From: Clostridia bacterium
Lineage (GTDB): Bacteria > Bacillota > Clostridia > UMGS1883
Direction: 5' to 3'
Length of the DNA: 64,000 bases
Assembly: GCA_045638945.1 (NCBI GenBank)
Contig: JAZUCF010000024.1
Location: 25,055-89,054 of the forward strand
The notes under the pieces were generated by a model. That model did not search any database and was not told the origin of the DNA. It saw only the letters and a list, made by a program, of their open reading frames with translations. Shown one piece after another: positions 301-59,798 of the stretch (its first letter is position 1; each line of letters begins with the position of its first letter). The translations under genes and the position numbers were made by a program.

Positions 301-380
301 AATTGAGCAATTCAATCGTGAGCAACGCTTGTTTGTTTAAAATTTAGTTGTGGCACGAAATGGGTGAAGCGGCACGCTTC
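301..380 (-). repeat. ~80-bp intergenic repeat family, copy C; overlaps last 12 codons of metH
   Basis: Shares the 17-mer GTGAAGCGGCACGCTTC (364-380) and a diverged head (AATT..AATT.AATCG.GAG) with copies at 19803-19883 and 53702-53772. Confidence 0.6.
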
Positions 381-2773
381 TTATTTATTTCTTCAGCGTA
401 TCTTACTGCTTCCATTGCATCCTTTGCATATTTGTCAGCACCGATTGCGTCGGAGTATTCCTGTGTAAGCACTGCTCCGCCAACGATGATTTTACAGTCG
501 GGCAGTTCTTTTCTTGTGAGCTTAATAGTTTCCTCCATTGCGGGAACTGTTGTTGTCATCAATGCACTCAGCCCTATAATGGGTGCATTAACCTCGGATG
601 CCTTTTCTACAATAACTTCGGGTGCTACATCCTTTCCCAAATCGTAAACCCTGAAGCCATAATTTTCAAGAAGAAGCTTCACGATGTTTTTACCTATATC
701 GTGAACATCGCCCTTAACCGTTGCAATTACTATAGGGCATTTATCCGAAGCATTTGAAGAAGACATTGCTTTTTTTATTTCCTCAAATGCCGCCTTTGCC
801 GCCTCCGCACTCATAAGAAGCTGGGGAAGATACACCGTTTTATTTTCAAAACCCGTTCCTACAATATTAAGTGCAGGGATAATTTCCTCTTGTACGATTG
901 TAAGCGGCTTTGTGCTTTCAAGCATTTCGCGTGTTATTGCCGCTGCCTGCTCACACAGCCCTTTAATAACCGCCTTTTGAAGTGCACTTCCTTGCTCGGA
1001 GGGGGAAACGGATTCTTTTTTAACTTCGGAAACAGCTACAGTCTCTGTGAGCATTTCACAGAAAGCAATATATTCAGAAAAGTTTTCATCAAAAGAATTA
1101 AGTGCACGAAAAGCATAGTATGCTTTCATCATTTCGACGGAATAGGGATTCATAATTGCCGCCGAAAGTCCGCTTGCCATGGCATTTGCAAAAAATATGC
1201 TATTAACTGCATCACGGTGGGGAAGTCCGAATGAAACATTGGAAACGCCCAACGAAGTATGAACACCCATCTTATGCTTAATCATGCTGACAGCACTTAG
1301 CGTTTCCCTTGCTGCGTCAGGCTCTGCACTTACAGTGAGTGTCAGCGGGTCAAAAATTATATCCTTTTTATCAATTCCGTACTTTTTAGCCTCGATAAGA
1401 ATTTTTTCTGCAACGGCATATCTTTCCTCAGCAGTTTTCGGTATTCCGTTTTCATCAAGCGTAAGTGCCACAATAAGACCGCCGTATTTTGCCGCAAGGG
1501 GAAAGACGGCATCCATACTTTCTTTTTTGCCGTTTACGGAATTAATCATAGCCTTGCCGTTGTATCGGCGGAGTGCTTTTTCCATAGCGGAAGCATCGGC
1601 AGTATCTATCTGTAAGGGTAAATTGATAACCGCCTGAAGACGGCAAACGGCATCTGTAAGCATTTTTGCCTCATCAATTTCGGGCAGACCTACGTTGACA
1701 TCAATAATATGTACACCTTTTTCCTGCTGGGAAATGCCCTCGTTTAAGATATAATCCATATCACCGTTTTTAAGGGCTTCCTTAAATCTCTTTTTGCCTG
1801 TGGGATTTATCCTTTCACCTATAAGAATGGGGGAATCCTTAAATTCAACCGCATGGGTGTAAGAGGAAACGCAGGTAATATTCTTTTTGCTAATTGCCAC
1901 AGGAGAAAGCCCTGACGATTTTTTTACAAGGGCTGAAATATATTCTGGGGTAGTACCGCAGCAACCGCCTGCAATGCGTATTCCTTTTTCCATAAGAGCA
2001 GCAACGTCCTCTGAAAATTCCTCCGAGAGAACATCATACACAGTTTCACCGCCAGATACCTTGGGAAGCCCTGCATTTGGTTTTAGTATTACAGGGAGGG
2101 AGGACTTTTTAAGATATTCCTCCGCAACCTTTATAAGAGCTTTCGGACCAAGCGAACAGTTTATTCCGATAGCGTCGGCACGCATACCCTCAAGCATTGC
2201 AACCATGGCGGAGGGGGAGGCACCTGTCATCAGCTTTCCGTCCTCGCCGTAAGCATTGGACACAAATACGGGCAGGCCACAGTTTTCTTTTGCCGCAAGG
2301 AGGGCAGCCTTTGTTTCATAGCTGTCGTTCATTGTTTCAATAAAAATCAGGTCTACGCCATATTTTACACCGAGCTTTACAGTTTCGGCAAAAAGGGAAA
2401 CCGCGTACTCGAAATCAAAATCGCCGTAGGGGGCAAGCATCCTTCCCGAAGGACCTATGTCAAGGGCTATCCATTTTTCTCCCTTTGCATCGGATTCCTC
2501 TCTTGCACGCTTTGCGTTTGCCACTGCCGCTCTTACAATTTCATCAAGCTCTTCGGGACTGAATTTCAGAAGATTTGCACCAAAGGTGTTTGTATTTACC
2601 ACATTGCTTCCCGCATCGTAATAACTGCGGTGAATTTTTGTAATTATATCGGGATGGGATATGTTCCACCTTTCAGGCAGCTCTCCCGGTAAAAGCCCCT
2701 CTTTTTGCAGAAGTGTTCCCATACCTCCGTCAAGATATATGAAGTTATCCTTTAAGTATTCTTTTATATTCAT
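344..2773 (-). CDS. metH: Methionine synthase core (homocysteine S-methyltransferase + pterin-binding + B12-binding domains; no activation domain)
   Basis: N-term DGGMGTLLQ Hcy-binding fold, pterin-binding middle and C-terminal B12 motif DVHDIGKNIV. Start placed at MNIKEY (2773) because it forms an ATGA overlap with the upstream stop and has an AGGAG RBS. Confidence 0.85.
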   Translation of the reverse strand: MNIKEYLKDNFIYLDGGMGTLLQKEGLLPGELPERWNISHPDIITKIHRSYYDAGSNVVNTNTFGANLLKFSPEELDEIVRAAVANAKRAREESDAKGEKWIALDIGPSGRMLAPYGDFDFEYAVSLFAETVKLGVKYGVDLIFIETMNDSYETKAALLAAKENCGLPVFVSNAYGEDGKLMTGASPSAMVAMLEGMRADAIGINCSLGPKALIKVAEEYLKKSSLPVILKPNAGLPKVSGGETVYDVLSEEFSEDVAALMEKGIRIAGGCCGTTPEYISALVKKSSGLSPVAISKKNITCVSSYTHAVEFKDSPILIGERINPTGKKRFKEALKNGDMDYILNEGISQQEKGVHIIDVNVGLPEIDEAKMLTDAVCRLQAVINLPLQIDTADASAMEKALRRYNGKAMINSVNGKKESMDAVFPLAAKYGGLIVALTLDENGIPKTAEERYAVAEKILIEAKKYGIDKKDIIFDPLTLTVSAEPDAARETLSAVSMIKHKMGVHTSLGVSNVSFGLPHRDAVNSIFFANAMASGLSAAIMNPYSVEMMKAYYAFRALNSFDENFSEYIAFCEMLTETVAVSEVKKESVSPSEQGSALQKAVIKGLCEQAAAITREMLESTKPLTIVQEEIIPALNIVGTGFENKTVYLPQLLMSAEAAKAAFEEIKKAMSSSNASDKCPIVIATVKGDVHDIGKNIVKLLLENYGFRVYDLGKDVAPEVIVEKASEVNAPIIGLSALMTTTVPAMEETIKLTRKELPDCKIIVGGAVLTQEYSDAIGADKYAKDAMEAVRYAEEINKKRAASPISCHN

Positions 2774-3441
2774 AATGTTCTCCTGTAACTGCAATTCGTC
2801 TTAGTGCAAGCATTGCAGTTTTGTTTTTTGTTTTCACACTCCGTATCGGAAATTCCTATAATCGCCGTTACCGACTTGGAGGGAGTCATCAGCATACTTT
2901 CGTTAAGGGTAAGCCCTATTCTTCGGCTCGGCTCCAATACTCTGAAAAAGTCTTTTTGAAGCCCCATGGGTAAATCTCCATACCCCGGACTGAAGCGAGG
3001 CTTGGTATATCCATACCCCTCGGCAATATATTGGTTAAAAGCATTACATAGTCCCTCTATCCTCTCGGCACCTATCGCTTGAAGCATATGCCCTTTGGAA
3101 GGGGAGGTTTTGCCGTAAAGGGCAATCAACCGGTCAATTTCAAGCCCGATTGTTGCCGCAAAGAGAATAAAGCTTCTGCATGCGCTAAGATTAGCTTTAA
3201 GCTTTTCGCTTTTGGTCGTTGTAAAGGAAAGATTAATCTCATCCTCCGAAAATGCGAGAGGGAAATTTCCGTAGCAAACCTTGTACGTAAGCTTATCACT
3301 GATAAGTAAAAGACATTCGTCAATCAGGTTTTCTATTTCGGGAGCTAACTTTTCCACCCCTGCATACCTTAAAATTTCACTTCTGTCTATAGGCGGGGCA
3401 GGAAATGTTTTCGTTAAAATGACACTGTTTATCATAGGCAT
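2770..3441 (-). CDS. Stand-alone MetH activation (AdoMet-binding reactivation) domain protein
   Basis: 223 aa between metF and metH in the same operon. Size and position fit the separately encoded reactivation domain of split clostridial MetH; motif recognition is from memory. Confidence 0.5.
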   Translation of the reverse strand: MPMINSVILTKTFPAPPIDRSEILRYAGVEKLAPEIENLIDECLLLISDKLTYKVCYGNFPLAFSEDEINLSFTTTKSEKLKANLSACRSFILFAATIGLEIDRLIALYGKTSPSKGHMLQAIGAERIEGLCNAFNQYIAEGYGYTKPRFSPGYGDLPMGLQKDFFRVLEPSRRIGLTLNESMLMTPSKSVTAIIGISDTECENKKQNCNACTKTNCSYRRTL

Positions 3442-4469: not shown

Positions 4470-5837
4470 ATGAATACTAAACTAACAAAAGATTTCACAC
4501 AGGGAAATATAGCAAAGCAGCTTCTCAGGTTCATGATTCCGTTTATGCTGTCAAATGCACTGCAAGTACTCTACAGCACAATTGACATGATAATAGTGGG
4601 CGAATTTGTAGGTACGGCAGGGCTTTCCGCAGTATCGCAAAGCAGTCATATAATAAACTTTGCCGCAATGGTCTGTCTGGGATTTTCAAATGCAGGGCAG
4701 GTGCTTATCTCTCAGGCATTGGGTGCAGGTAAAAAAGAAAGGCTGAATCATATAATAGGAACTCTCTTTTCAATGCTGATGATTATTGCACTGATATTTA
4801 CGGCGGTGTTTATAAGCTTTAAGGATGCTATTCTAAATGCAATCAGCGTTCCCGAAGAATCGTATAAAATGGCGATTCATTACCTTGTTATCTGTGGCGG
4901 AGGAATGGTGTTTACGGCAGGGTATAATATGGTTTCCGCTGTGCTTCGCGGAATGGGAGATTCTAAAAGACCGCTCCTTTTCATTCTGATTGCATCGGTG
5001 GTTAATTTAGTGCTTGACTATTTATTTACAGGGCTTATGGACTTTGGTGTGGCAGGCGCCGCATGGGCCACCATAATAGGACAGGCAGTGTCATTTATAT
5101 TCTCTGTTTATTACTTGTATAAGCGTAAGCAGGAATTTGGTTTTGATTTTAAGATTAAAAGCTTTCGCATAAAGAAAAATTATGCACGTACTATAATAAG
5201 CCTCGGAACCCCTATGGCAGTACAGGCAGGATTTATAAATATTTCTATGCTCTTTGTAAATTCCCTTATAAACAAGGTGGGTGTAGTTGCATCTGCAACC
5301 TTTGGTGTAGGTGTGCGTATAGACGATATTGTAAATAAAATTTGTATGGGAATTCAGTATGCCGCAATTCCCATGATAAGCCAGAACATAGGTGCAGGCA
5401 AGCAGGAAAGAGCACAAAAGGTTGTTTACACTGCATGGCTGTTTTCAGGGGTTTTAACGCTTTTCTTCATGGCTCTTTATTTGGGGTGCGGTCAGTGGCT
5501 GTTTAAGATGTTCTCCGACGATGTCAAGGTTCACGAAATGTCACATATCTTTATTTCTGCAATACTGTGGATGTTCCCTGCCTTTGCGGTTATGAGGGGA
5601 AGCGGTGCATTTATCCAGGGAATAGGACACGCCAAGCTCAGCATGGTGCTTGCACTGCTCGACGGCGTATTCCTCCGAATAGGACTCAGCTATCTTTTCG
5701 GAGTGCTGCTGGGATGGGGATTCTACGGATTTGTATTAGGATATGCATTGGCCCCCTATGGATTTGCAGTTCCCAGTATGATATATTTCCTTTCAGGAAA
5801 ATGGAAAATGCGTAAAACTTTAGCCGAAGAATTATAA
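4470..5837 (+). CDS. MATE family efflux transporter
   Basis: 455 aa, 12 predicted TM segments; N-terminal motif typical of MATE/NorM proteins. Confidence 0.8.
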   Translation: MNTKLTKDFTQGNIAKQLLRFMIPFMLSNALQVLYSTIDMIIVGEFVGTAGLSAVSQSSHIINFAAMVCLGFSNAGQVLISQALGAGKKERLNHIIGTLFSMLMIIALIFTAVFISFKDAILNAISVPEESYKMAIHYLVICGGGMVFTAGYNMVSAVLRGMGDSKRPLLFILIASVVNLVLDYLFTGLMDFGVAGAAWATIIGQAVSFIFSVYYLYKRKQEFGFDFKIKSFRIKKNYARTIISLGTPMAVQAGFINISMLFVNSLINKVGVVASATFGVGVRIDDIVNKICMGIQYAAIPMISQNIGAGKQERAQKVVYTAWLFSGVLTLFFMALYLGCGQWLFKMFSDDVKVHEMSHIFISAILWMFPAFAVMRGSGAFIQGIGHAKLSMVLALLDGVFLRIGLSYLFGVLLGWGFYGFVLGYALAPYGFAVPSMIYFLSGKWKMRKTLAEEL

Positions 5838-6902: not shown

Positions 6903-6990
6903 TTTTATCTTTCTGGTGCAGGTAACAGGACTTGAACCTGCATGAAATTGCTCTCATACGGACCTGAACCGTACGCGTCTGCCAATTCCG
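6903..6990 (-). tRNA. tRNA-Leu (anticodon CAG)
   Basis: Reverse complement reads GCAGGTA acceptor, D-arm, anticodon stem TACGG/CCGTA with loop TTCAGGT (CAG), long variable arm, T-arm CAGGTTCAAGTCCTG and a 3' CCA encoded; 88 nt. Confidence 0.85.
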
Positions 6991-7091
6991 CCATACCTGC
7001 ATATTTGATACTTTGATATTATACATCATAAATAATTGAAAATCAAGTGTTTTTTGGGAAAATATTTACCTGAAAGAGGGAGTAAAAACAT

Positions 7092-13910: not shown

Positions 13911-16784
13911 ATGAAAAAACTTATAAGCTTGATTTTGGTATTGTGTATGGTGATGAGCTTTGAAAGCTTTGCCCTTGCCGATGAAACTGAAAAGACACAG
14001 GCATCGGCATTTACAACCGTTAAGATTCCGTTCCCCGACAGTATTGAAGACCGCAACTCGTGGATTACACATGCAAGGTATGTAGACAGCGGAGAAATCA
14101 TTCCGCTATCACTTGTATATGAGGGGAATGTGTACGCAACAGTCCCCGTGGAGAATAAGGACCGCGGAATTGAGGCTTTCGTTACCGAAGCAGTGGAATT
14201 TACCGATGTTGATGATTCGGATTTTGATTTTCATGACGTTAAAATGTTGTCACGTGTCGGTGTTGTTCGTGGAAATGACAAGGGCGAGGCAAATATTCAT
14301 GATAACGTAACCCGTGCCGAAGCGGTTGCTATGGTAATGCGTTTCATGGGGCTTGAAGGTCTGGCATGGGAATATACAGATGAAATTTCAGGTAGATATA
14401 CTCAAACCGTTACCTTTGAGGATGTTTCCAAAAAAGACTGGTTTTATTATGTGGTGAATTATGCCCGAGCCTGCGGAATTATTGAGGGCGACAGTCCGAC
14501 AGTCTTTTCTCCTTACAGAAATGTAACGAGGGAAGAAATTACGGCTATGGTTGCAAGAGCCTTGCAGTATGCAAATCTAAGGTGCTTTGTTCGTCAAAAC
14601 GAAAACTTTGCCGACAAAGAAAATATATCCGATTGGGCGAAAGAAGCGTACGATTATCTCGGATATAACTGCATAGTGGACTATCCGCAGAATACGGAAA
14701 ATATTGACTGGGATAACCCCGAACAGTTTCTATATCCGCAGAAAGCGGCTACAAGAGCAAACGTTGCATATATCTTAAATAATGTTCAGGACGAGTGCCA
14801 GATGTATGCATCGGAGCTTGCAAAGATGTTCGGCTTTGACAAAGAAATGCCCAAAATTGATGGCTCAACCTCAACATATCCTTTTACGCAGGTGGTTTAC
14901 AATACGCTTTTCCGTAACGGGCAGACACACCCCGATTATCCGCAAAAACATTCAAAGAGCCATGCTTCATATCAGCGGCTGATAAACGGAGAGGTTGATA
15001 TGCTTTTTGCCTCGGTTTATCCTGCGAGTGATATTCTGAAAATGGCAGAAGAAAAAGGCGTGGAGCTGGAGCTTATCCCAATTGCGTATGATGCGATGAT
15101 ATTCTTTACCAATAAGGATAATCCGATAACGGGGCTTACTAAGGAGCAGATAACTGATATCTATGTGAATGATGCCTATGATAACTGGTCGGAGGTAGGG
15201 GGAAGCGATGCACTTCTTTATCCTTATTGCAGAAATAACGACAGCGGCAGTCATGCACAGATGGAAAAGCATTTCCTTAAAGGAAATGAGATACATAAGG
15301 AAGTACAGAGAGAAACCTCCAGAACAATGTCGGATATTTTAACCGATGTTATAGCGGCAAAAACTGACAGTCCGTTAGGCTATGGACTTGGCTACAGCAT
15401 TTATTATTACTATCATAACGTAGATGCGGTGCTCGACACAAAGCGGCATCTAAAGCTTCTCGCAATCGATGGTGTGATGCCTACTGATGATACTATTGCA
15501 GACGACTCATATCCGCTTTCCAATAACACCTATGTAGTACTCCGAAAAGATACTCCTGCAGACGCACCTGCAAGGAAAATGGCAGAATTTATGCTCACAG
15601 AGGCAGGTCAGCAGTGCGTTGAAGGTGCAGGATTCGGACGACTTAAAAAGACTGTGAAAATTTCAGACGATATGCTCTTTGCGGATAAGATAAACGTACA
15701 GATGCCACAGGATAAAAACTACATGTTTTCCCCATTGTCGATTAAAATGGCTTTATCCCTTGCGGCAAACGGGGCATCGGGCGAAACACAGCAGCAGATA
15801 TTAAATGCGTTGGGAGTTACAAATCTTGATGAATTTAATACACTTTCAAAGGATTTGATAGAAAGATATTCCAAGGCGGATATTTTAAGCCTTAATATTG
15901 CAAATTCAATCTGGATAAACAAGGATAAAACCTCTCAGCAATTCAGCAATGATTTTAAGGGCATTGCTAAGGAGTTTTATAAGGCTGATGCAAATACAGT
16001 CGCCGATGCGTTGGCAGTAAGCGAAATCAATTCGTGGGTAAATGACAAAACGAATGGCAAAATCCCGACTATAATAGATAGCACAGACGATTTTTGGGCA
16101 ATGCTTATTAATGCCATTTACTTTAAAGGTGCATGGCTTGATGAGTTTAATGTAAATGCAACCAAGCCCGACGTATTTAATAATGCAGACGGAACAAAGA
16201 TTACAACCGATTTTATGAATACTACGGACTGGATACCCTATGCCGAAACAAAGTCGGTGCAGATGATAGAGCTTCCTTATCAAAACCGTGTGGAAAAATT
16301 CTCGGACAGCGGAGAATATCTTGATACAGAGGTTTATAAAGACCTTGATGTAAGTATGTATCTTATTATGGCAGATGGCGGCATTAATGCCCAGCAGGAA
16401 TTAACTGCTGCAATAAACGATGATGCTTTTAAGAGCACATACATCAAGCTGGCTATGCCTAAATTCAAGATTGAGTATTCTGCACAGATGAATGACATGC
16501 TTATGAATATGGGCATAACCACAGCATTTGATGAGGGAGAGGCAGACTTTACCAAGATGTTTTATAACGGAAATATGTTTTTTACCGATATGCTTCACAA
16601 AACCTTTATAAGTGTGGACGAAAAGGGAACCGAAGCAGCTGCAGTTACTTCAATCGGCATGGGAGGCTCATCACTTCCGCCCGAGCCTGTCGAGCTTAGG
16701 TTCAATAAACCGTTCTATTTTGCAATCCGTGACAACACAAGCGGCGAAACACTCTTTATGGGACGCTATGCCTTTGCAAATTAA
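13911..16784 (+). CDS. Secreted multidomain protein: signal peptide + 3 SLH domains + PstS-like periplasmic-binding domain + C-terminal serpin
   Basis: N-terminal hydrophobic leader. Three SLH-like repeats (FHDVKMLSRVGVVRG.., FEDVSKKDWFYYVVNYARACGII.., FADKENISDWAKEAYDYLG..). PBP-like-2 signature (GSTSTYP..IAYDAMIFFTNKDNPITGLTKEQITDIY..NDSGSHAQME). Serpin domain from MFSPLSIKMALSLAANGASGETQQQILNALG to the hinge/RCL EKGTEAAAVTSIGMGGSSLPPEP and FNKPFYFAIRD. Single uninterrupted reading frame. Confidence 0.7.
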   Translation: MKKLISLILVLCMVMSFESFALADETEKTQASAFTTVKIPFPDSIEDRNSWITHARYVDSGEIIPLSLVYEGNVYATVPVENKDRGIEAFVTEAVEFTDVDDSDFDFHDVKMLSRVGVVRGNDKGEANIHDNVTRAEAVAMVMRFMGLEGLAWEYTDEISGRYTQTVTFEDVSKKDWFYYVVNYARACGIIEGDSPTVFSPYRNVTREEITAMVARALQYANLRCFVRQNENFADKENISDWAKEAYDYLGYNCIVDYPQNTENIDWDNPEQFLYPQKAATRANVAYILNNVQDECQMYASELAKMFGFDKEMPKIDGSTSTYPFTQVVYNTLFRNGQTHPDYPQKHSKSHASYQRLINGEVDMLFASVYPASDILKMAEEKGVELELIPIAYDAMIFFTNKDNPITGLTKEQITDIYVNDAYDNWSEVGGSDALLYPYCRNNDSGSHAQMEKHFLKGNEIHKEVQRETSRTMSDILTDVIAAKTDSPLGYGLGYSIYYYYHNVDAVLDTKRHLKLLAIDGVMPTDDTIADDSYPLSNNTYVVLRKDTPADAPARKMAEFMLTEAGQQCVEGAGFGRLKKTVKISDDMLFADKINVQMPQDKNYMFSPLSIKMALSLAANGASGETQQQILNALGVTNLDEFNTLSKDLIERYSKADILSLNIANSIWINKDKTSQQFSNDFKGIAKEFYKADANTVADALAVSEINSWVNDKTNGKIPTIIDSTDDFWAMLINAIYFKGAWLDEFNVNATKPDVFNNADGTKITTDFMNTTDWIPYAETKSVQMIELPYQNRVEKFSDSGEYLDTEVYKDLDVSMYLIMADGGINAQQELTAAINDDAFKSTYIKLAMPKFKIEYSAQMNDMLMNMGITTAFDEGEADFTKMFYNGNMFFTDMLHKTFISVDEKGTEAAAVTSIGMGGSSLPPEPVELRFNKPFYFAIRDNTSGETLFMGRYAFAN

Positions 16785-16937: not shown

Positions 16938-17306
16938 ATGAAAATATCAGAAACAGAAATGGAAATTATGAGGATAATCTGGGATAAGGGCGATAAGGTA
17001 ACTACAAGTGAGCTTGCCGAGAAAATGCCCGATAAGAAGCTTACGACTATTTCCACCCTTGCAGGAAGGCTTATTGATAAGGGCTGCCTTAAATCTGAAA
17101 AGATTGGTCGCAGTCATGTTCACGAATATGAGGCGATTATTTCCGAACAGGAATATCAGGCAATGCAAACAAAGGAATTTGTAAGGTCAATTCATCGTGG
17201 TAGTGCAAAAAGCCTTATTTCAGCACTTTTCCGTGATGAAGAATTTACCAAGGAGGATATTGATGAGCTTAGAAGGTTCATAGAAAAGCAGGGTGATGAA
17301 TTATGA
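16938..17306 (+). CDS. BlaI/MecI/CopY family transcriptional repressor
   Basis: 122 aa; winged-helix N-terminus MKISETEMEIMRIIWDKGDKVTTSEL typical of the penicillinase-repressor family. Confidence 0.8.
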   Translation: MKISETEMEIMRIIWDKGDKVTTSELAEKMPDKKLTTISTLAGRLIDKGCLKSEKIGRSHVHEYEAIISEQEYQAMQTKEFVRSIHRGSAKSLISALFRDEEFTKEDIDELRRFIEKQGDEL

Positions 17307-19717
17307 TGGAATCGGTAATTATATCAACCGTTGCAGGCTCTGTCGTTTGCAGTGCATTGCTGATATTTAAAAACAAAATATTATCGTTTTTTGGGGGTAA
17401 AGCACTATACTACATAAGCTTACTTGCAATGCTTATCTTTATTCTTCCCATAAATATCGGTGAATTATCACTTCCCAAAGCACCCATACATCAGGAAGTT
17501 AATGTAACAGAAGTAAATACAGAAGCTCCTGTTAAAAATACAGATAATGCTTTGGTGCAAACAACACAGAGGGCTCCGCAGGAGCCGCAGCATAAGGAAC
17601 TGCCAAAGCCGTCAAATATTGTAAGAAGGTCTAACCCCATTACTGTGCAGGAGATTTTAATATCGGTATGGCTTTTAGGTTTTGTTGCTTCAATATGCAG
17701 ATATTTTATATCATATTTCAGATTCAAGAAGAAAATCTGTGCTTTTGATACACACGAAAATATAAACGGTATAAAGGTAATTAAAAGCCCATTGATAACC
17801 TCTCCCATGATTTTCGGATTTTTCAGACCAACGCTTGCAATTCCCGAAATTGAAATGAACGAGGGCGATTACAACCTTGCAATTAAGCATGAAATGGTGC
17901 ATTATAAGCATCATGATTCATGGATTAAGCTTTTTGCAGTAATCGTTAATTCGATTCACTGGTTTAACCCCATTACATATTTTATGGTGAATTTAATAGG
18001 CGAGGCGTGCGAATATGCCTGTGATGAGCAAGTAACAAAGGAAATGGATTTGACAGACAAGAAGCAGTACAGCACTATGATACTCTCTATGGTATGCCAG
18101 TCTTCACCTGCTCTGTCAAGCAATATGGTTAAAAACAAAAAACAGCTTAAACGGAGGTTTGAGATGATTATGAAAAAGAAAAGCTTCAGCGTTTTTAGAA
18201 CAGCATTATGCACAGTGCTGATACTTACATTAACCTGTGGAAGTATCGTATTGGCAAATAAGGTTGCACCTTTAATTTCTTCCGCCTTGAAGGATGATTA
18301 TGTTTATATAACAACATGGGGAGATAACGGTTACGGTAAAGGCTACAATGAATTCGTCCCCGTAGAGAAGAACGGAGAATACTATCTGCCGCTGAGGGAG
18401 TTTCTGAATAAATCAGATGTTGAAAACGATAAAATCAAATATGACAATGGTGTAATCACGATTGACATCTGGACAAATGAAATGACTGTGGTTTCTGTAG
18501 CTGTTAGGCCAAGCGGCAGCGATCCCACTTTACATGAAAAAGAGAAAAGCAAGACACTCCCTGCCGAATATTCATGGTCAACAAGCTGCAAAATCGGCAG
18601 TAAAGAAGTAGAAATTGCAGGAGAAAAATACACATTATCCAATGCTCCTTATCTTGAGAACGGAATTACATATGTTCCCTACGAGTATCTGAAAAAATTA
18701 AAGCTGTACGAAAATAAGTACACAAGTGCAAATATAGCAAAGCACAGAGGAAGAACAACCTCAAAATTTGATTCAATGATGCTGTTCGGCTTTGACAGTA
18801 CAAACGCACAGTACTATACCGACTATATTCAAATGGAAAATTTGCTTGGCAGAGAGCCGTTTAATTCAGTTTCAAGCATGACATATAATGCCAACGCAAA
18901 AATATCAAAAACAGGCTACCGCACCGAATTTGAAGCTTCATATGATTATTTTGAACTGAATGATGTCGAAAAAGAAGGGCATGTGAAAATAAAGCTGAAC
19001 AAGGTAACCCGTATTTATAGCAAAGGCAGTGACATAGAGGGCTTGTTTACTGTAGTAATTGACGGCAAAACTGTTTACGATAACAAAAAAGGCAATATTA
19101 TACAGCTTCCCATTCCGGCAGGTGACGGAGTGCTGGATTTTTCAAATACCAAGGTCAAAATCGGTGACTTGAATATTGATATGTTCTTTACCGGCTTCAA
19201 TACTGTATCTGACGAATATGATGAAAGAGCAAGGGAAGTAGGCAAAATGAGTGAGCTTCCCGATACTGTCAAAAAATTTATCGTTCCGTCTGCCGTTAAG
19301 CTAAACGGCAAACAGGTTAGCCGTGGTAACAAGACACAAAGCAATTTCTGGTATAACAAGGAAAAGAAGCTTATTGATGTAAACATACAGTTTGACAACT
19401 ACAATGGCGGTAACGGTGCAGACATGGAATCTTACAGAATACACACCGAAGTAAATTCAAAAATGACGGTTATTGATGAAAATACCATCTCAGCAGAATT
19501 GTATTTTACACAGGGGAATAACAATCGTATTGACTCTTTTGATGCAATTGTTATGTTTTTACCCGACGGAGGGTTTGATCTGAAATCCACCGACGGCAAG
19601 TATATTATTATAGGAACGGCAAAGGAATTTGTTCCGCATTGGGAATGGTCGGAGGAAGAAAAGAACGCTCCTGTTCCATCGGTGTTCATGATTAAAGAGC
19701 AAAACGAAGCAGAATAA
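17303..19717 (+). CDS. BlaR1-like M56 family membrane metalloprotease/signal transducer with a large non-PBP extracellular domain
   Basis: TM segments plus HEMVHYKHHD (HExxH of peptidase M56). ~500-aa C-terminal region with copper-amine-oxidase-N-like repeats (YYLPLREFL.., ITYVPYEYLKKL) instead of a penicillin-binding sensor. Overlaps the blaI stop (ATGA). Confidence 0.7.
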   Translation: MMESVIISTVAGSVVCSALLIFKNKILSFFGGKALYYISLLAMLIFILPINIGELSLPKAPIHQEVNVTEVNTEAPVKNTDNALVQTTQRAPQEPQHKELPKPSNIVRRSNPITVQEILISVWLLGFVASICRYFISYFRFKKKICAFDTHENINGIKVIKSPLITSPMIFGFFRPTLAIPEIEMNEGDYNLAIKHEMVHYKHHDSWIKLFAVIVNSIHWFNPITYFMVNLIGEACEYACDEQVTKEMDLTDKKQYSTMILSMVCQSSPALSSNMVKNKKQLKRRFEMIMKKKSFSVFRTALCTVLILTLTCGSIVLANKVAPLISSALKDDYVYITTWGDNGYGKGYNEFVPVEKNGEYYLPLREFLNKSDVENDKIKYDNGVITIDIWTNEMTVVSVAVRPSGSDPTLHEKEKSKTLPAEYSWSTSCKIGSKEVEIAGEKYTLSNAPYLENGITYVPYEYLKKLKLYENKYTSANIAKHRGRTTSKFDSMMLFGFDSTNAQYYTDYIQMENLLGREPFNSVSSMTYNANAKISKTGYRTEFEASYDYFELNDVEKEGHVKIKLNKVTRIYSKGSDIEGLFTVVIDGKTVYDNKKGNIIQLPIPAGDGVLDFSNTKVKIGDLNIDMFFTGFNTVSDEYDERAREVGKMSELPDTVKKFIVPSAVKLNGKQVSRGNKTQSNFWYNKEKKLIDVNIQFDNYNGGNGADMESYRIHTEVNSKMTVIDENTISAELYFTQGNNNRIDSFDAIVMFLPDGGFDLKSTDGKYIIIGTAKEFVPHWEWSEEEKNAPVPSVFMIKEQNEAE

Positions 19718-19771
19718 ATTTATTGAAAAACCGTAACTCAAACAAAACACTTTTGTAAAATAATGCAATAA

Positions 19772-19796
19772 AAAAGAAGGCTATGCCTTCTTTTTT
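19772..19796. terminator. Rho-independent terminator (GAAGGC-tat-GCCTTC + T6)
   Basis: Hairpin with A-run upstream and T-run downstream, between convergent genes. Confidence 0.6.
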
Positions 19797-19802
19797 ACAG
19801 TA

Positions 19803-19883
19803 TAGGAATTTGCGTAAATTTAATTCGCATGAAACTGTGTTCGTGCAATGTTCGGGTGCGACGAGAGTGAAGCGGCACGCTTC
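19803..19883 (-). repeat. ~80-bp intergenic repeat family, copy A
   Basis: Ends with GTGAAGCGGCACGCTTC 4 nt from the stop codon of the minus-strand transporter gene; head AATTTGCGTAAATTTAATTCGC resembles copies B and C. Confidence 0.6.
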
Positions 19884-19887
19884 TTTT

Positions 19888-20997
19888 TTACTTAATTATA
19901 ATCATTTCTGAAAGGGTAAGCAGTATTAAAAATCCGAAATTAAACGCCGTAAACATTCCTATATACTGCATTGCCCTTTTGGGATTATACTTTGTGTATT
20001 CACGGAAAGTGATAAGACTTGCCAAGGAAGCAATCAGCGTTCCCACACCGCCGATATTCACCCCTAAAAGAAGCTCTCGGTAGTTGTTTGTGAACTGCGA
20101 CAGCAGTATTGCAGAGGGAACATTGCTTATAATCTGACAGGACAGAATACTAAAGAGCAGCGTGCTTTTACCTAATAGATATTCAAATAAATTCTGAACG
20201 ACTTCAATCCTTGCCATATTTCCTGCAAATATAAAGAAAAATACAAAGGTCAGAAGCAGGGGATAGTCCACCGCTTTAAGTGCTTTTCTGTCCATAAAGA
20301 AGAGTACGGGTGGGATAATAATAAGCCCCGTTATATAAGGAATTGTCCTGAAAACAATCGCGATTGAAAGAATAAAGAGAAGTAAATAGATGAAAGTTCT
20401 CTTTTTGCTAAGCTTGGGCGAAGCATCGTTTATTCTAAGCGGTTCGGGGTGAACAAATATGAAGCAGCAAATGGTTATGATGCTTATTGCAATAACAAAA
20501 GGTGGTGCCATTATTCCCATAAATTCATCGGTGGGAATATTGAATTTGGTGTAAAGAAAAAGATTCTGCGGATTTCCGAAAGGTGTGAGCATACCGCCTA
20601 AATTTGCGGCAATGTTCTGCATAATAAATGTAAAGCACATATACTTTTCTTTATGTGTTGAGCTTAGCACAAAGTAGCCCAGCGGAAGAAAGGTTAAAAG
20701 TGCCATATCATTTGCAATCAGCATTGAGCCGATAAAGGTTATGTATATAATTGCGGTGATTGCCGCACGTGCATTTTTAAAGCATTGTACAATTTTCTGT
20801 GCCAATATATAAAAGAAATTAATATTTTTAAGTGCACACACAACGGCAAGCACACAAAAAAGACAGGTAAGCGACTTAAAATCAAAATATCCGATATATT
20901 CTTTGTCTATTCCCACTATAATGCTTGTAATAAGAGCTGCAAAGAATGCAACAGATAAAACAGCATTGTTTTTCATAAAAGAGGCGATTTTACTCAT
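19888..20997 (-). CDS. Polytopic membrane transporter (ArsB/NhaD-like ion-transporter superfamily, putative)
   Basis: 369 aa, ~10-12 TM segments, PFGNPQNL motif; family assignment is tentative. Confidence 0.45.
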   Translation of the reverse strand: MSKIASFMKNNAVLSVAFFAALITSIIVGIDKEYIGYFDFKSLTCLFCVLAVVCALKNINFFYILAQKIVQCFKNARAAITAIIYITFIGSMLIANDMALLTFLPLGYFVLSSTHKEKYMCFTFIMQNIAANLGGMLTPFGNPQNLFLYTKFNIPTDEFMGIMAPPFVIAISIITICCFIFVHPEPLRINDASPKLSKKRTFIYLLLFILSIAIVFRTIPYITGLIIIPPVLFFMDRKALKAVDYPLLLTFVFFFIFAGNMARIEVVQNLFEYLLGKSTLLFSILSCQIISNVPSAILLSQFTNNYRELLLGVNIGGVGTLIASLASLITFREYTKYNPKRAMQYIGMFTAFNFGFLILLTLSEMIIIK

Positions 20998-42617: not shown

Positions 42618-42872
42618 TTATTCTACCACTTTTGAATAGGTTTTTTTGCCTTCGGATTCACTTTCATAGTAGAAAGAGCGTATTCTTACACCAAGCTCCT
42701 TGGCGGCATTTAATATTATGTTTTTTGCACTGTCGTCAAAACGCAGACTATATCCACATCCCTCTCTTGCTATTGCCTGCGGCGTCTGAATAACAGAGGA
42801 ATACACCCCGAATTCGTAGGCGTGCCGTTTCAGCCGTGTTGCTGATGTAATTGAAGCCATTGTTGCAAGCAT
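42618..42872 (-). CDS. DUF3343-like small protein (putative S/Se carrier partner of the cysteine desulfurase)
   Basis: 84 aa, immediately upstream of the desulfurase, with a conserved internal Cys (..AIAREGCGYS..). Confidence 0.4.
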   Translation of the reverse strand: MLATMASITSATRLKRHAYEFGVYSSVIQTPQAIAREGCGYSLRFDDSAKNIILNAAKELGVRIRSFYYESESEGKKTYSKVVE

Positions 42873-43068
42873 TGAAATCTCTCCATTCCTTTATTGCACA
42901 TACTTTATTTTATGCTGAACGCACTTCTTTGGTTATAGCGGAAGTATGAATTATTAAAAATGTAACAAATTCGTAAAGAATAACAAAAATATGTTGAAAT
43001 AAAGAAAGAAAAGTGTTATTATAACTATATATGGCTATTTTGTGATTAAAAATTGGGAGGGAATTAAA

Positions 43069-48102: not shown

Positions 48103-49485
48103 ATGAAAAAGCATCAAAGAATTACAAGTCTAATAATTATTTTGATACTCTTGTGTTCGTTTTCCTGCACTTCATATGCTGAAAATGAAAATAAAAAAGT
48201 GAATAATTCTTCTGAAACCTCGCAGGAGACCCCTGAAAAAAATACAATTGAGGCAAAGTCGCCCCATGCCGTTTTGATGGACTTAAAAACAGGTTCGATT
48301 ATATATGAGAAAAATTCCAGTGATGCGGTTTATCCCGCGGGGTTAACTAATATAATGACCGCAGTCCTTGTCCTTGAAAACTCTAATATGGAGGAGCTTG
48401 CCACTGCAAGCGAAACGGCTCTTTCCAATGTCTTGCCCGGGGACAACAAAATGGGTATTTTAAAGGAAGAGAAGCTGTCGGTGCGTCAGCTTGTTTACGG
48501 GATGCTTTTAGAGTCTGCCTCCGATGCAGCAAACGTTCTTGCAGAAAAAACAGCAGGCAGTATAGAAGCCTTTGTAAATATGATGAATGCCAGAGCCAAG
48601 GAGCTTGGCATGGAGAAAACAAGCTTCACCAATCCTGCGGGAAACCATGATGACAGACATTATACAACTCCAATGGATATGGCGATTTTAGCAAAGCACG
48701 CTATGTCAATCCCTGAGTTTTGCGATATTGTAAAATGTGATTCCTACACTATTCCTCCAACGGAAAAGAATCCCAATTCAAGAAAGCTTACAAACAGAAA
48801 TCATCTTGTAAGCAGACTTATACGAAATGATTATTATTACGCAAATGCCACAGGGCTTAAAACAGGCTACAGTGCAGAAGCAAAGAGCTGTGTGGCGGCA
48901 TCGGCACAAAAAGGCTCAATGTCACTTTTAGCGTTGGTTTTTGAAGCCGACACAAGCAATAATGTACTGCAAAGCTATGATGACTGCAGAAAGATGTTTG
49001 ATTTTGTGTTTTCAAATTATGTGTCGCAAACTATTGTCAGCGAGGGAGATATAGTAGCACAAACCAATATTATAAATACAAGGCGTGACAATAAAATTAT
49101 TTTAACGGCAGAGAGACCATTATCCGTTATTCGTGAAAAAGATTCCGAGCCTGTGGAGGTCACATATAAGGATTTCGTGAAAAAATCCGTAAGTGCTCCC
49201 GTGAAAAAAGGTGAAAAAATCGGAACGAGAGAGTATTTTGTAAACGGGCAGTCTATAGGAACGCTAAATCTTTTAGCAGAGAAAAATTATAAGCTCGACC
49301 CCGTGACATTCTTTATAAATAAGCTTAAGGCATTTTTTACTTCGCCATGGCTTTATGCGGTCATAGTTTTATTGATAATATTCTTTATTTTAGCGGAAAG
49401 AAGACGAAGAAGAATCCTCCGCAAAAAACGGCGTGACGCCCGCAAAAAAAGAAATCTGGAACTGATTCACAGTATAGACAGCTAA
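48103..49485 (+). CDS. PBP5/D-Ala-D-Ala carboxypeptidase (S11) homolog with degenerate active-site motifs (predicted inactive)
   Basis: Signal peptide; S11 fold. SxxK reads PAGLTNIMT (Ser->Gly, Lys->Asn), SxN reads ESASD (Asn->Ser), KTG retained (LKTGYS). C-terminal TM plus polybasic tail. Confidence 0.7.
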   Translation: MKKHQRITSLIIILILLCSFSCTSYAENENKKVNNSSETSQETPEKNTIEAKSPHAVLMDLKTGSIIYEKNSSDAVYPAGLTNIMTAVLVLENSNMEELATASETALSNVLPGDNKMGILKEEKLSVRQLVYGMLLESASDAANVLAEKTAGSIEAFVNMMNARAKELGMEKTSFTNPAGNHDDRHYTTPMDMAILAKHAMSIPEFCDIVKCDSYTIPPTEKNPNSRKLTNRNHLVSRLIRNDYYYANATGLKTGYSAEAKSCVAASAQKGSMSLLALVFEADTSNNVLQSYDDCRKMFDFVFSNYVSQTIVSEGDIVAQTNIINTRRDNKIILTAERPLSVIREKDSEPVEVTYKDFVKKSVSAPVKKGEKIGTREYFVNGQSIGTLNLLAEKNYKLDPVTFFINKLKAFFTSPWLYAVIVLLIIFFILAERRRRRILRKKRRDARKKRNLELIHSIDS

Positions 49486-49520
49486 CAAAAAACGGCTCAA
49501 TCGAGCCGTTTTTTGTTAGC
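49481..49520. repeat. 40-bp perfect palindrome/terminator; left boundary repeat of the low-GC cassette
   Basis: GCTAACAAAAAACGGCTC-aatc-GAGCCGTTTTTTGTTAGC; its 30-nt core is repeated at 53667-53701. Confidence 0.7.
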
Positions 49521-49546
49521 TTTATGGAGAACTTTCATCTCCCAAA

Positions 49547-50461
49547 TCATATTTTTTCGGCAGAAATCATAGCTCCGTTAAGCATATCAATTTTTATAAT
49601 AAAATGCTCTTTAGCTGTCCGGCAAATTATAGCAAAGTACCTACCGTCAAATAACGGAGTGTGCTCAATATAATCATAAGAATTATATAAATCCGGAGCT
49701 TTTTGAGAGCCTAAAGTTGTAATCCCTAAAGAATATAATTCATTTTTCAAATTAAATCTTACTTCTGATTCTTCGCTTTTATAAACAAAATCCACGACCT
49801 CTCCGAATGTCGTTCCGGGGTATTGAATATAAAAGTTTTTGCCATATAAGAATTTGCCTTTTATACCACCATGAGGAGAAGTACTCCAAAGAGCCATATA
49901 ATCGAGCTTGGGGCGAACAGCTTTTTCGGTGTTTATCACATATACTTTTCCATCAAAAAAATACTCCCAATCTAATAATTTTACCGCAATATCCCATACC
50001 AAAGGAATATATGTTACACCACGGAAATTGACAACGGGATATCTCTTTTCACTATTATACTTTTGGTTTTGAATGTATACATCATATTGAACAGTATATG
50101 TTTTATGAAAATCTCCGGAAACATTTTGTTGATTTGAAACAACCTCTGAAAAGTTTTCCTCTCTCTGGTCACTTTTTCCGACATAAAAAAGATAGGGAGA
50201 GTTTTCATTATATCCTTTTTTTCCATAATGCGTTTCCAGTCCTGCGAAGTTGCACATATTATGTGTCAATGGAAAATATAATATATTATTATACTCTAAA
50301 AATGGATATTCTCTATAGGTATTTTCTATAATTTGTCCGTTTACTTTAATTTCATATTTAGGAACAGATACATTTAAAGTTTTCGCACTGACTTTCATTC
50401 CTAGGAACAAGGTAATGAATGTGGAAATTATTATAAAAATTGATTTTTTCACTTTTTTCAC
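49547..50461 (-). CDS. Secreted protein of unknown function
   Basis: Signal peptide MKKVKKSIFIIISTFITLFLGMKVSA; no recognisable domain; low GC. Confidence 0.5.
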   Translation of the reverse strand: MKKVKKSIFIIISTFITLFLGMKVSAKTLNVSVPKYEIKVNGQIIENTYREYPFLEYNNILYFPLTHNMCNFAGLETHYGKKGYNENSPYLFYVGKSDQREENFSEVVSNQQNVSGDFHKTYTVQYDVYIQNQKYNSEKRYPVVNFRGVTYIPLVWDIAVKLLDWEYFFDGKVYVINTEKAVRPKLDYMALWSTSPHGGIKGKFLYGKNFYIQYPGTTFGEVVDFVYKSEESEVRFNLKNELYSLGITTLGSQKAPDLYNSYDYIEHTPLFDGRYFAIICRTAKEHFIIKIDMLNGAMISAEKI

Positions 50462-50467
50462 TCCTGT

Positions 50468-51622: not shown

Positions 51623-51752
51623 GACATTTTTTCTCCTTTACTTTATCATAAAATTTTGTTTTTTTCAACTGCTTTACAGTTGTTTTTGACGTTTGTCCGT
51701 TTTTTCATATGTAGTCCAACGGAATCACCTCGCATATAGGTAAAGAACAAAA

Positions 51753-52202: not shown

Positions 52203-52334
52203 GGAAAAAATCCCCTTTCATTTTAGATTTCATATATAATAATCCTCGAAAAGCTAAAAAGGGGACAAAATTTCTAAAATTTTTGTAAAAAAATAAAACG
52301 CATACCGTTTACCGGTTTGCGCTTTACTATGTTA

Positions 52335-53045
52335 CTATTTAACTATAATATTTTCAGCAATTTTAATTATTTCGTCTTTTTCAATGTTTGCTGTAATTCG
52401 ATAAGTATATGAACTATTATGCCATATCAGCATATTTCTATCCGTCTTTGATATATAGATGCCATCATAGCCATTTATCGTAATGTTTTCCACAACGGCA
52501 TTTTCAGTATCTACTGCGGAATTTACATCAAGTTTACCAAGTCTAAATTGAAAATATTTATCCTTGTTTAAGAAAGATAAGCTCACCATCCTGCTGGAAA
52601 CACTGCTTTCCTCTGAAACAAATCCCTCCGGAATATACTTAAGGTCTACCATACCATCGTATATTTCTCCTTGCTTTTTATCTGTGAAGCGTATTTCTGT
52701 ATCAGGGGCATCGGCATCAAAAATAAAATTCATGAATTTTATTCTCCAAGCTTCTACGGAAAAAACAGCCACTGTCATTATCGCGGCGAATATCAGGAGG
52801 AAACAGGCCGCTCTTTTAGTATAAACCATAGCCTTGAGCAATTTTTGCTTACGCCGTTCGCGACTGAAAAGTGCCTTCATTTTTTTTGTGTGCTCCTGTG
52901 AAAATTCTACCTGTGATTTCTTTAAATCATATTCAACACAGATTCTTTCATCAGCTAAAATTGTCGCTTCATCAATTACGGCTTCAAAAGCTTTGTCAAT
53001 AGAATTTTCTACCGCATTGTTATACGAATTATCAGTACTTTTCAT
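52335..53045 (-). CDS. Anti-sigma factor (single TM, C-terminal DUF4367-like domain)
   Basis: Overlaps the ECF sigma gene stop; cytoplasmic N-term, TM ACFLLIFAAIMTVAVF, extracellular C-domain. Confidence 0.55.
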   Translation of the reverse strand: MKSTDNSYNNAVENSIDKAFEAVIDEATILADERICVEYDLKKSQVEFSQEHTKKMKALFSRERRKQKLLKAMVYTKRAACFLLIFAAIMTVAVFSVEAWRIKFMNFIFDADAPDTEIRFTDKKQGEIYDGMVDLKYIPEGFVSEESSVSSRMVSLSFLNKDKYFQFRLGKLDVNSAVDTENAVVENITINGYDGIYISKTDRNMLIWHNSSYTYRITANIEKDEIIKIAENIIVK

Positions 53046-53580
53046 TTGCAATTTTCCTCCTTTCCAATTCTTTTTTTAGTATGTGCTTAGCTCGTTGTAA
53101 ACGCTTTTTGACAGTTTCGGATTGTAACCCTGTAATTTCGGAAATTTCAGTTATGCTCAATTTATGTACTCTTGAAAGCAAAAGAACCTCTCTGTATTTA
53201 ATATCCATATGATATATAGCATCCGAAACATTTTTTACAGCCTCCTTATTCAGCACCAGCTCTTCCGGAGTAAACACGTTTTTGGGGGAAAGCTCAATTT
53301 CGTCTGTATTATTCAAATCATGCCTTTTTTGTTTATTATAAAGTTTAAGGGCAACGTTACGGCATATTGTGCACAGGTAGTTTCGTGTTGCAATAGACTC
53401 TGGTTGGGCAATTTTTTCTAAATTGCCCCTAAGTAATATTTCAAAGGTTTCATGTATGGCATCTTCTGCCGCATGTTGATTTTCAAGTATTTCAAATGCC
53501 ACGACAAACAACAGTTTTCCGTATGAATGATATAGAGATTCAATTTTATCAACTTTATTAACCGGTTTTTTGAAGAACAT
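53032..53580 (-). CDS. ECF-type sigma-70 family RNA polymerase sigma factor
   Basis: Region 2 (..LLFVVAFEILENQHAAEDAIHETF) and region 4 HTH (LSITEISEITGLQSETVKKRLQRAK). Confidence 0.8.
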   Translation of the reverse strand: MFFKKPVNKVDKIESLYHSYGKLLFVVAFEILENQHAAEDAIHETFEILLRGNLEKIAQPESIATRNYLCTICRNVALKLYNKQKRHDLNNTDEIELSPKNVFTPEELVLNKEAVKNVSDAIYHMDIKYREVLLLSRVHKLSITEISEITGLQSETVKKRLQRAKHILKKELERRKIANEKY

Positions 53581-59528: not shown

Positions 59529-59798
59529 TTGAAATCGGTTATCACAGTTATGGGTAAGGACAGCGTGGGCATTATTGCAAAAGTAAGTGCGCTCCTTGCC
59601 AAAAATGAAATTAATATAATTGACATTTCACAGACTACATATGAAAATCAGTTTTTAATGGTAATGATTGTAGATATGAAAAATGCCAATGTATCATTTG
59701 CCGAAACTGTAAATGAATTAAAAGCTTTGGGCGAAGCACTTGGTCAGAAAATCCAGGTTCGTAATAAAAAAGTTTTTGATTCAATGCATAGAATTTAA
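59529..59798 (+). CDS. ACT domain protein (UPF0237 family)
   Basis: 89 aa; [37 protein letters not shown] fold; TTG start after GGAGG. Confidence 0.7.

Follow-up and report, generated by a model that had tools for sequence, protein, structure and literature searches.

A family of terminator-associated miniature repeats in an uncultured lineage of gut Clostridia

The stretch of Clostridia bacterium DNA analysed here, 64,000 nucleotides of contig JAZUCF010000024.1 (positions 25,055 to 89,054) and hereafter called the window, carries three copies of a repeat of about 90 bp, each lying behind the end of a minus-strand gene, and raises the question of what kind of unit is found at these places and how it came there. 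A first-pass annotation of the window had proposed REP/BOX-like intergenic repeats, elements acting in the 3' untranslated region (UTR), or remnants of a small mobile element targeting gene ends. The analyses reported here assign the repeat to an abundant, hitherto undescribed family of miniature repeats that accompany terminators in a lineage of uncultured gut Clostridia. Its members are probably small (85-97 bp), non-coding and non-autonomous mobile elements homing to intrinsic-terminator-like sites, and look more like parasites than like regulatory signals.

The extent of each window copy was set in two ways, by an nhmmer family profile and by covariance model R1, and the three minus-strand copies listed by the first-pass annotation were all recovered at or near the positions given there. 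Copy A, belonging to the long subfamily, extends over 285-385 on the minus strand according to the profile (76 bits, E 1.3e-22) and over 291-380 according to the covariance model (99.1 bits), and lies between the metH coding sequence and the metH terminator. Copy B, a member of the short "type 1" subfamily, occupies 19790-19888 on the minus strand by the profile (95 bits, E 1.4e-28) and 19798-19883 by the model (59 bits), between the stop codon of a CitMHS-type transporter gene (19888-19890) and the transporter terminator. Copy C was located at 53691-53775 on the minus strand by the profile (54 bits, E 8.7e-16) and at 53695-53774 by the model (70.9 bits), and begins at the stop codon of the rubrerythrin gene (53773-53775). 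The adjacent minus-strand genes are then metH for A, the transporter for B and rubrerythrin for C, which corrects the order transporter, rubrerythrin, metH assigned earlier; likewise, the sequence GCGACGAG before the hairpin, previously attributed to copies A and B, is actually common to B and C.

The three copies could be aligned with each other across their entire length of about 90 nt, beyond the 17-mer to which a chance similarity might have been confined. The 13-mer TGAAGCGGCACGC occurs exactly 3 times in the window, and allowing up to two mismatches it returned 7 matches against 0.79 expected, a number that none of 100 shuffles reached. As had been suggested, the copies are distinct from ordinary terminators, since a separate intrinsic terminator follows each of them. 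Terminators were predicted at 249-279 on the minus strand after copy A and at 19768-19798 on the minus strand beside copy B, the latter with 14 pairs followed by a T tail and a bidirectional appearance, while the terminator hairpin beside copy C lies within 53662-53702 and has a second copy at about 49485-49515.

Further copies were found in many Clostridia metagenome-assembled genomes (MAGs) and metagenome contigs, again with similarity over about 90 nt. In 570 kb of loci fetched from gut metagenomes and about 10 MAGs of uncultured Clostridia, the covariance model detected 94 copies. A strict-pattern scan of a genome collection hit 90 stretches, about half of which were chance matches in high-GC genomes, and yielded about 45 copies; a metagenome scan contributed about 40 additional ones. 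The matches clustered in MAGs of uncultured "Clostridia bacterium" (JAZQAB01, JAZPYX01, JAZQAO01, JAZORN01, JAZRPN01 and JAZUOX01) and occurred also in the ruminant-gut MAGs JAFTOF01, JAFQQD01 and JAFSBF01, the first of which is the nearest relative of the window's species (rubrerythrin flank 93-95% identical to locus L080). JAZQAB01 contained at least 29 copies in 20 sampled 8-kb blocks, and near-identical copies of B were present at about 15 other loci of this MAG. No family of Rfam 15 matched the repeat, the sole match at the gathering threshold in the window being a tRNA gene at 6917-7000 on the minus strand, and a literature search with the sequence of the conserved hairpin described below gave no match. 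Exact-protein look-ups for MetH, the transporter, MTHFR and a 223-aa protein returned nothing on record. The hairpin was also searched in viral contigs, where 13 exact 16-mers were present, none matching the family profile; an association with phages was rejected, these 16-mers occurring by chance only.

The repeat unit is non-coding, measures about 90 bp (85-97 bp) and comprises conserved ends and a variable middle, with at least two subfamilies (86 and 90 nt in length). When it is read on the same strand as the neighbouring window gene, its parts follow in the order A-rich run (consensus TAAAAAAG), hairpin P1, ACCC, a middle forming hairpin P2, a conserved tail (AAATTCCTATAC, ending ..ACGCAAATTCCTATACNG), a second A-rich run and the terminator hairpin. 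P1 reads GAAGCG-TGC-CGCTTC, with both stem and loop invariant. It was located by folding at 366-380 (minus strand) in copy A and at 19869-19883 (minus strand) in copy B; read on the plus strand, both resemble terminators, with the hairpin followed by a T-rich tail in A and GAAGCGGCACGCTTC followed by TTTTTT in B, and P1 with its T-run on the opposite strand scored as terminator-like in these two copies. In copy C, sequence reading identified a weakened P1 at 53760-53774 on the minus strand, AAGGCG-TGC-CGCTTC; other strains have TGAAGCG at this site, so that the TGA stop codon overlaps P1. No promoter was predicted inside the unit in the three window copies, and no terminal inverted repeats were found in alignments or folds, the unit ends GAAGCGTGCCGCTTCACCC and ..CAAATTCCTATAC not being complementary.

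Hairpin P2 consists of TCGYR..YRCGA plus an inner 4-bp helix. In a set of 93 distinct sequences, whose alignment was fitted to the model so that the counts lean toward it, 92% of the P2 cells were paired and 7 of the 15 pairs showed changes on both sides. Double-change cells numbered 74, compared with 26.9 +/- 3.9 in shuffles, none of 500 of which reached the observed value; slid controls were 26-59% paired. The alignment thus indicates that P2 is kept by compensatory changes. G-U and A-C counts were 20 and 16, giving no preference for which strand folds.

Some variants of the unit were also recorded. The third unit of the 3-copy array at L099 2480-2600 holds an internal insertion of about 100 nt between ..CACGATAAAA and CGCAAATTCCTATA.., and miniature derivatives of about 40-48 nt (L074 3729-3776; L187 at about 55-95) have kept nothing but P1-ACCC and the ..TATACGGTAAAAAA end, so that loss of the middle leaves both ends in place. 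The 19-mer GAAGCGTGCCGCTTCACCC alone is common to other low-GC metagenome contigs (L140 6876-7110, L150 166-310, L136, L156, L157, L160 and L178), where it opens unrelated tandem units of 62-63 nt directly after adhE-like and ffh stop codons; L140 has four of these units and then a terminator.

As to the surroundings of the unit, nearly every solitary or array-last copy has a strong hairpin with a T-run within a few nucleotides. The unit lies on the A-run side of this GC-rich terminator hairpin with P1 distal to it, and the orientation relative to the hairpin is constant, the order on the opposite strand being hairpin, T-run, unit, P1, T-run. A co-oriented upstream open reading frame (ORF) of at least 100 aa, ending between -31 and +34 nt of P1, was present for 26 of the 55 listed copies. 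TAA stands exactly 7 nt before P1 in 13 copies, and 8 ORFs run into the unit and stop at +34, five of them being at least 200 aa long and gaining a KRAASPISC.. tail; trigger factor is among the other genes that precede copies. About one third of the solitary or array-first copies have no co-oriented upstream gene. In L166 the copy has the rplT terminator on one side and a SpoU methylase gene on the other and is antisense to both, and in L034 a terminator and the ribosome-binding site (RBS) of an ACT-domain gene enclose the two copies, which are antisense and between co-directional genes. The constant partner of the repeat is the intrinsic terminator and not the gene end, and the placement between stop codon and terminator would be a by-product of terminators lying near stop codons. 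The earlier description of the repeats as always abutting a gene 3' end is accurate in the window and does not extend to the family, where the terminator is the constant partner; the accompanying idea of a mobile element with a target is supported, the target being a terminator-like hairpin with an A/T run in place of a gene end.

The occurrence of insertion was suggested, first, by the comparison of empty and occupied sites. The region 59470-59528 of the window, just upstream of the RBS of an ACT-domain gene (59529..59798, plus strand), is an empty target site consisting of a hairpin, CTATGCAGT..ACTGCATGG, plus TTTTAATTTTT. BLAST analysis of the flanks showed that the orthologous L034 site in MAG JAZQAB01 holds the two copies mentioned above, L034 being orthologous to window 59320-59733 with flanks 84-92% identical. 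A second pair is provided by L149, empty at 4581-4626, and the occupied L092.

Second, duplications were observed on both sides of the units. Copy B is flanked by a 12-nt direct repeat, CTTCTTTTTTAC, identical at 12/12 nt, the gene-proximal copy of which (19880-19891) includes the transporter stop codon, while the terminator-proximal copy (19787-19798) overlaps the terminator stem and T-run. The flanks of copy A share CTTCTT, at 273-278 and 377-382, as a short direct repeat, and the first L034 copy has TTAGAAAG (8 nt) on each side, locus-specific bases included. Over 57 solitary non-redundant copies, the longest word shared by the two flanks of one copy averaged 6.35 nt, compared with 5.79 +/- 0.13 for permuted flanks, taken from different copies (0 of 3000 permutations reaching the observed mean). 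The flanking direct repeats are 6-12 nt long, variable in length and limited to the A/T run. Site-specific recombinases do not fit these flanks, as they would be expected to leave a constant core and not a copy of target-specific bases.

Third, tandem arrays occur, some of them with a 97-bp period in direct orientation. In the heterogeneous arrays L029, L031, L034, L038 and L054 subfamilies are mixed and neighbouring units are 59-76% identical, which argues for independent insertions beside an existing P1 with its run, a mimic of the target. Homogeneous arrays, with neighbours 93-97% identical (L099, L176 and L184), may have grown by duplication. The dozens of copies in one MAG, the empty sites, the flank duplications and the mixed arrays together support the dispersed-repeat or mobile-element option of the first-pass annotation.

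The trace that an insertion may leave on a host gene is exemplified by copy A. The metH ORF (344..2794, minus strand) meets no stop before the hairpin and runs 10 codons into the repeat, ending ..AEEINKK-RAASPISCHN*, so that its last 10 codons and stop (..KK RAASPISCHN*, 344-376 on the minus strand) are encoded by copy A; here the hairpin is not found downstream of the stop codon, next to which it had been placed in every copy. MetH orthologues end in ..AEEIN plus 0-7 residues. Judging from the sequence, the original metH stop was probably the TAG inside the terminator stem at about 270-272, with a reconstructed ending ..EEINKK-TAG, and the insertion of copy A would have replaced this stop codon and added a 10-residue tail. 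The KRAASPISC tail is also carried by an AraC-type ORF in L099.

Copy C illustrates the fate of the unit after its arrival. Orthologues of this copy are present in all strains compared (L001-L010) and in L080, and differ by indels and substitutions, including an 11-nt indel, changes adjacent to P1 and the overlap of stop codon and P1, even where the flanks of the strains are 99% identical. The window copy itself has an 11-nt internal deletion with respect to its orthologues and appears to be an old, partly decayed copy; the differences suggest that copy C is under relaxed constraint in situ and is decaying differently in different strains. Relaxed constraint is also indicated by ORFs that run into the unit at five or more loci.

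Structural changes were noted at or near two of the copies. In L124-L126 the exact place of copy B is taken by an IS200-type insertion sequence (IS) element (2020-2725; Y1_Tnp, 156 aa). The transporter stop codon is the exact point at which synteny with the window begins, and the copy-B terminator is inverted and follows a Metallophos gene, which points to the repeat as the breakpoint of a rearrangement. A strain-variable island of 4.2 kb beside copy C (window 49486-53690, bounded at about 49485-49515 and 53669-53697) encodes a sigma-70 factor (53032..53580), a DUF4367 protein (52335..53051) and three ORFs with no Pfam match; it is missing in strains L001, L004, L005 and L010 and is flanked by two copies of the terminator AAAAAACGGCTCAAnTTGAGCCGTTTTTT. 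Copy C was considered as the att site of this island and rejected, since the repeat occurs whether or not the island is there and it is the duplicated terminator that forms the island's boundaries.

On these grounds, the following course of events may be envisaged for an element homing to terminators. Insertion would be a copy-in event, primed or staggered across the A/T run of about 6-12 nt beside a DNA or RNA hairpin and catalysed in trans by a putative enzyme, and would leave the run duplicated on both sides of the inserted unit. The opposite-strand end of the unit, P1 with the duplicated T-run, is itself a copy of the target, at which new units, those of other subfamilies included, insert and give rise to arrays. 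A target-primed mechanism, with RNA or single-stranded DNA as template, would be preferred over a cut-and-paste process of the kind used by DDE MITEs (miniature transposable elements with inverted repeats), because the duplication has the shape of the run, inverted repeats are lacking and the end of the element is a transcript-termination signal. The consequences for the host, namely the C-terminal tail of MetH, a second terminator-like hairpin facing convergent transcription and rearrangement breakpoints, would be side effects.

Several observations weigh against this proposal. In both pairs of empty and occupied sites the adjacent terminator sequence differs too, and the genomes compared are only about 80-90% identical, with no clean recent before/after pair seen; the pairs are not pristine for these reasons. 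The flank duplications are short and A-rich, which makes the individual cases weak, and their family-wide effect is modest. All loci were fished with patterns containing P1, and the copy structures, truncations and context statistics given here are accordingly biased to P1-bearing copies. Neither an autonomous partner nor a candidate enzyme was found in about 1.3 Mb of fetched loci, nor did these loci contain a long composite element with P1 and the 3' end separated by an ORF; a tblastn search of the 8-kb blocks around about 45 MAG copies detected no Y1 transposase, and the IS200 element at the copy-B site in other strains has ends unrelated to the repeat. Finally, the invariance of P1 and the covariation of P2 might alternatively stem from a function as RNA or in protein binding.

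This last possibility, in which the repeat is a functional RNA module, either a structured 3'-UTR element or a 3'-UTR-derived small RNA extending from P1 to the terminator with P1-ACCC as a protein-binding site, is considered unlikely, although it survives better than the other alternatives. All three window copies lie within a 3' UTR upstream of a terminator, the stem and loop of P1 are invariant and P2 covaries. In one variant of this explanation the unit would mimic the L20 operator helix of the Firmicutes infC leader and tune termination or mRNA stability at many genes. Copy B with its terminator gave a full-length match to L20_leader (RF00558) below threshold, with 26.8 bits and E 0.0012 in a 181-nt search, and its layout is that of the family: after an A-rich lead come a GAAGC/GCUUC hairpin and another hairpin of irregular shape, and an AU-rich linker leads to the terminator. 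P1 and its flanks agree with the conserved domain at about 20 of 26 positions. The stretch that aligns, AAAAAGAAGC..GCUUC.C.CCU, is similar to the leader's conserved domain of 25 nt, which forms the upper helix bound by L20 (PMC1865079). The score is, however, far under the gathering threshold of 58.7, the central L20-binding part cannot be aligned and the repeat is not located upstream of infC; 12 other copies and the L099 array had no L20_leader match at E <= 10, and a genuine infC leader (L060, 40.1 bits) has a different P1. The only copy near rplT (L166) is downstream of that gene and on the other strand. The resemblance to the L20 operator, sub-threshold and not family-wide, was thus set aside and survives only as a minor rival.

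An RNA function of a more general kind meets with other difficulties. An obligatory role in the 3' UTR, one of the options initially put forward, is hard to hold, because in L166 and L034 the copies run antisense to the genes on either side and copy C decays in different ways in strains with 99%-identical flanks; in addition, the counts of G-U and A-C give no advantage to the transcribed strand, and the unit contains no predicted promoter. The functional-RNA explanation keeps its place partly because the P1 19-mer also opens the unrelated units of 62-63 nt that follow adhE and ffh in further low-GC bacteria, a distribution that fits the recognition hairpin of a mobilising enzyme and a protein-binding RNA motif alike.

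A more specific version of the mobile-element proposal, in which the family would depend on an RNA-mediated, SINE-like, terminator-homing mobilisation system of an undescribed type, must be regarded as quite improbable. According to this version, the opposite-strand transcript of the unit would end in its own intrinsic terminator, P1 plus a U-run; the U-tail would pair with the A-run at some other terminator-like site, with reverse transcription starting from a nick or from the end of a nascent DNA strand, producing run duplications, no inverted repeats and self-renewing targets. The finding that P1-ACCC heads unrelated units in other gut Firmicutes suggests that such machinery would be widespread. 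As in the target-primed reverse transcription of short and long interspersed nuclear elements (SINEs and LINEs), inverted repeats are absent, the target duplications are variable and homopolymer-rich and the element ends in a run. Apparent truncations at the end opposite the run (L023, L101 and L190) extend the likeness but are confounded, since every locus was fished with P1. The repeat differs from SINEs and LINEs in being bacterial and in that the run would be a termination U-tail and not poly(A), and no reverse transcriptase (RT) was linked to it in the loci examined.

Mobilisation as single-stranded DNA by a Y1 HUH transposase recognising P1, in the manner of REP/RAYT systems or of PATE-like elements derived from IS200/IS605, seems equally doubtful. 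Features in common are the invariant hairpin at one end, the fixed orientation of insertion beside hairpins, the lack of terminal inverted repeats and the high number of extragenic copies, and a Y1_Tnp gene of IS200 type lies at the exact copy-B position in other strains of the species. The hairpins at both ends of this IS200, CCACGCGA..TCGCGTGG and CCACCCGC..GCGGGTGG, are nevertheless unrelated to those of the repeat. Together with the absence of Y1 genes from the 8-kb blocks around the MAG copies, this led us to drop the link. Transposition by Y1 enzymes such as those of IS608 and ISDra2 proceeds by insertion 3' of a fixed target of 4-5 nt, with no duplication, whereas the repeat is flanked by variable, duplicated runs with locus-specific bases (TTAGAAAG, TAACAAAG, ATAAAAAAGG and CTTCTTTTTTAC), and no GTAG-type REP signature is present.

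Spread with no transposase at all, through replication template switching or recombination between the A/T runs that flank hairpins, with stalling at terminators and slippage leading to arrays, is very unlikely. Every junction lies in A/T-run microhomology beside a hairpin, frequently continuing as similarity to the bases with which the terminator stem opens (GAAG in A and B; AGCG in L025), the homogeneous arrays are compatible with slippage and no enzyme was found. Such a process leaves unexplained, however, the strict conservation of P1 and of the AAATTCCTATAC end despite a drifting middle, as well as the presence of the same P1 at the head of other repeat families, and the heterogeneous arrays would require repeated inter-locus events at one spot. 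A chance resemblance of terminator stems is refuted, to the point of being negligible, by E-values of 1e-15 to 1e-28 across about 90 nt, by the shuffles, by the 94 family members elsewhere and by the fact that the unit is separate from, and additional to, real terminators.

Three further readings of the locus were rejected. A selenocysteine insertion sequence (SECIS), suggested by G-TGA-AGCGG plus a hairpin, was discarded because TAA, TAG and TGA all occur as stop codons at the junction, with differing frames, and no ORF reads on; a small peptide or toxin encoded on the plus strand was discarded as the short ORFs are not conserved between subfamilies. The plus strand at 42818-42893 is weakly similar to the repeat along its full length (15 bits and, for the window, E 0.0011) and lies antisense to the RBS and first 18 codons of a Se_S_carrier (DUF3343) gene (42618..42872, minus strand) that precedes a class-V aminotransferase gene. 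This similarity is probably due to chance, because the Pfam domain covers residues 2-68, and the idea that the copies are 5' fragments or antisense regulators of that gene was abandoned, the similarity being weak and the N-terminus native to the domain.

To place the family among known systems, the repeat was compared with the small dispersed repeats Correia/NEMIS of Neisseria, RUP and BOX of pneumococcus and bcr1 of the Bacillus cereus group (reviewed in PMC2229807 and PMC10969869). Like bacterial MITEs and other small repeats of this kind, it is about 100 bp long, non-coding, intergenic and often at gene ends, with tens of copies per genome, flanking duplications, stable secondary structure, extension of ORFs and terminator-like hairpins. 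It differs in that its two ends are unrelated and form no terminal inverted repeats, insertion is oriented to a hairpin and the duplication is the terminator A/T run, variable in length; no autonomous IS sharing the ends of the repeat came to light in the roughly 1.3 Mb of loci fetched. For classical DDE MITEs, inverted ends are a requirement.

With REP/BIME sequences and REPIN-RAYT systems the repeat shares extragenic hairpins near gene 3' ends and terminators, a hairpin conserved species-wide and a presumed mobilisation in trans. Its unit of about 90 nt, in contrast, combines one short (15-nt) invariant hairpin with a longer non-palindromic body, its arrays are direct tandems with a 97-nt period and not alternating, and flanking duplications are present; a tblastn search with a Y1 transposase, covering 8-kb blocks, revealed no RAYT (Y1_Tnp) gene near the MAG copies. 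The term REP/BOX-like can be retained as an analogy only, neither a defining REP/RAYT feature nor that of a classical MITE (terminal inverted repeats) having been found. From PATEs derived from IS200/IS605 the family is distinguished by its variable and duplicated flanks and by the different hairpins at both ends of the IS200 of L124-126.

Bacterial group II introns of class C have intrinsic terminators as homing sites, where they enter the T-run immediately downstream of the hairpin. The repeat resembles them in behaviour only, having a hairpin plus T-run as target, a fixed orientation and many different terminators as sites, and departs from them in its size of about 90 nt, in lacking a ribozyme and an RT ORF and in making target duplications. 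Rfam models of group II intron domains (Intron_gpII and group-II-D1D4) gave no match at the gathering threshold or at E <= 10, and the opposite-strand 5' end of the unit is ACNGTATAGG and not the GUGYG of group II introns. Integron attC sites differ as well, since the repeat has no end-to-end inverted repeat and no GTTRRRY core, and its copies are scattered among housekeeping genes. The repeat is not a member of the MITE, REP/RAYT, PATE, attC or group II intron classes nor of any Rfam family, and no standard mechanism (DDE MITE, Y1/REP or group II intron) accounts for its combination of features. It represents a new variant among small bacterial interspersed repeats.

Outside the repeats, the window contains at 13911-16784 on the plus strand a 957-aa ORF with S-layer homology, PBP-like and C-terminal serpin domains, located upstream of a BlaI/BlaR1-like pair (16938..19717).

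For the annotation of gut Clostridia, the repeat is of consequence in that it alters the C-termini of proteins (MetH, AraC-type regulators and others), adds terminator-like hairpins and occurs at synteny breakpoints, and it provides a marker for strain-level typing in an uncultured lineage. It also calls for caution in the discovery of RNA motifs, as covarying hairpins in 3' UTRs are not always regulatory RNAs. If mobile, it would be a small element that combines the lack of inverted repeats, the duplication of an A/T run, oriented homing to terminators and regeneration of its own target; this combination lies outside the standard mechanisms and may therefore point to a new way for small DNA to spread.

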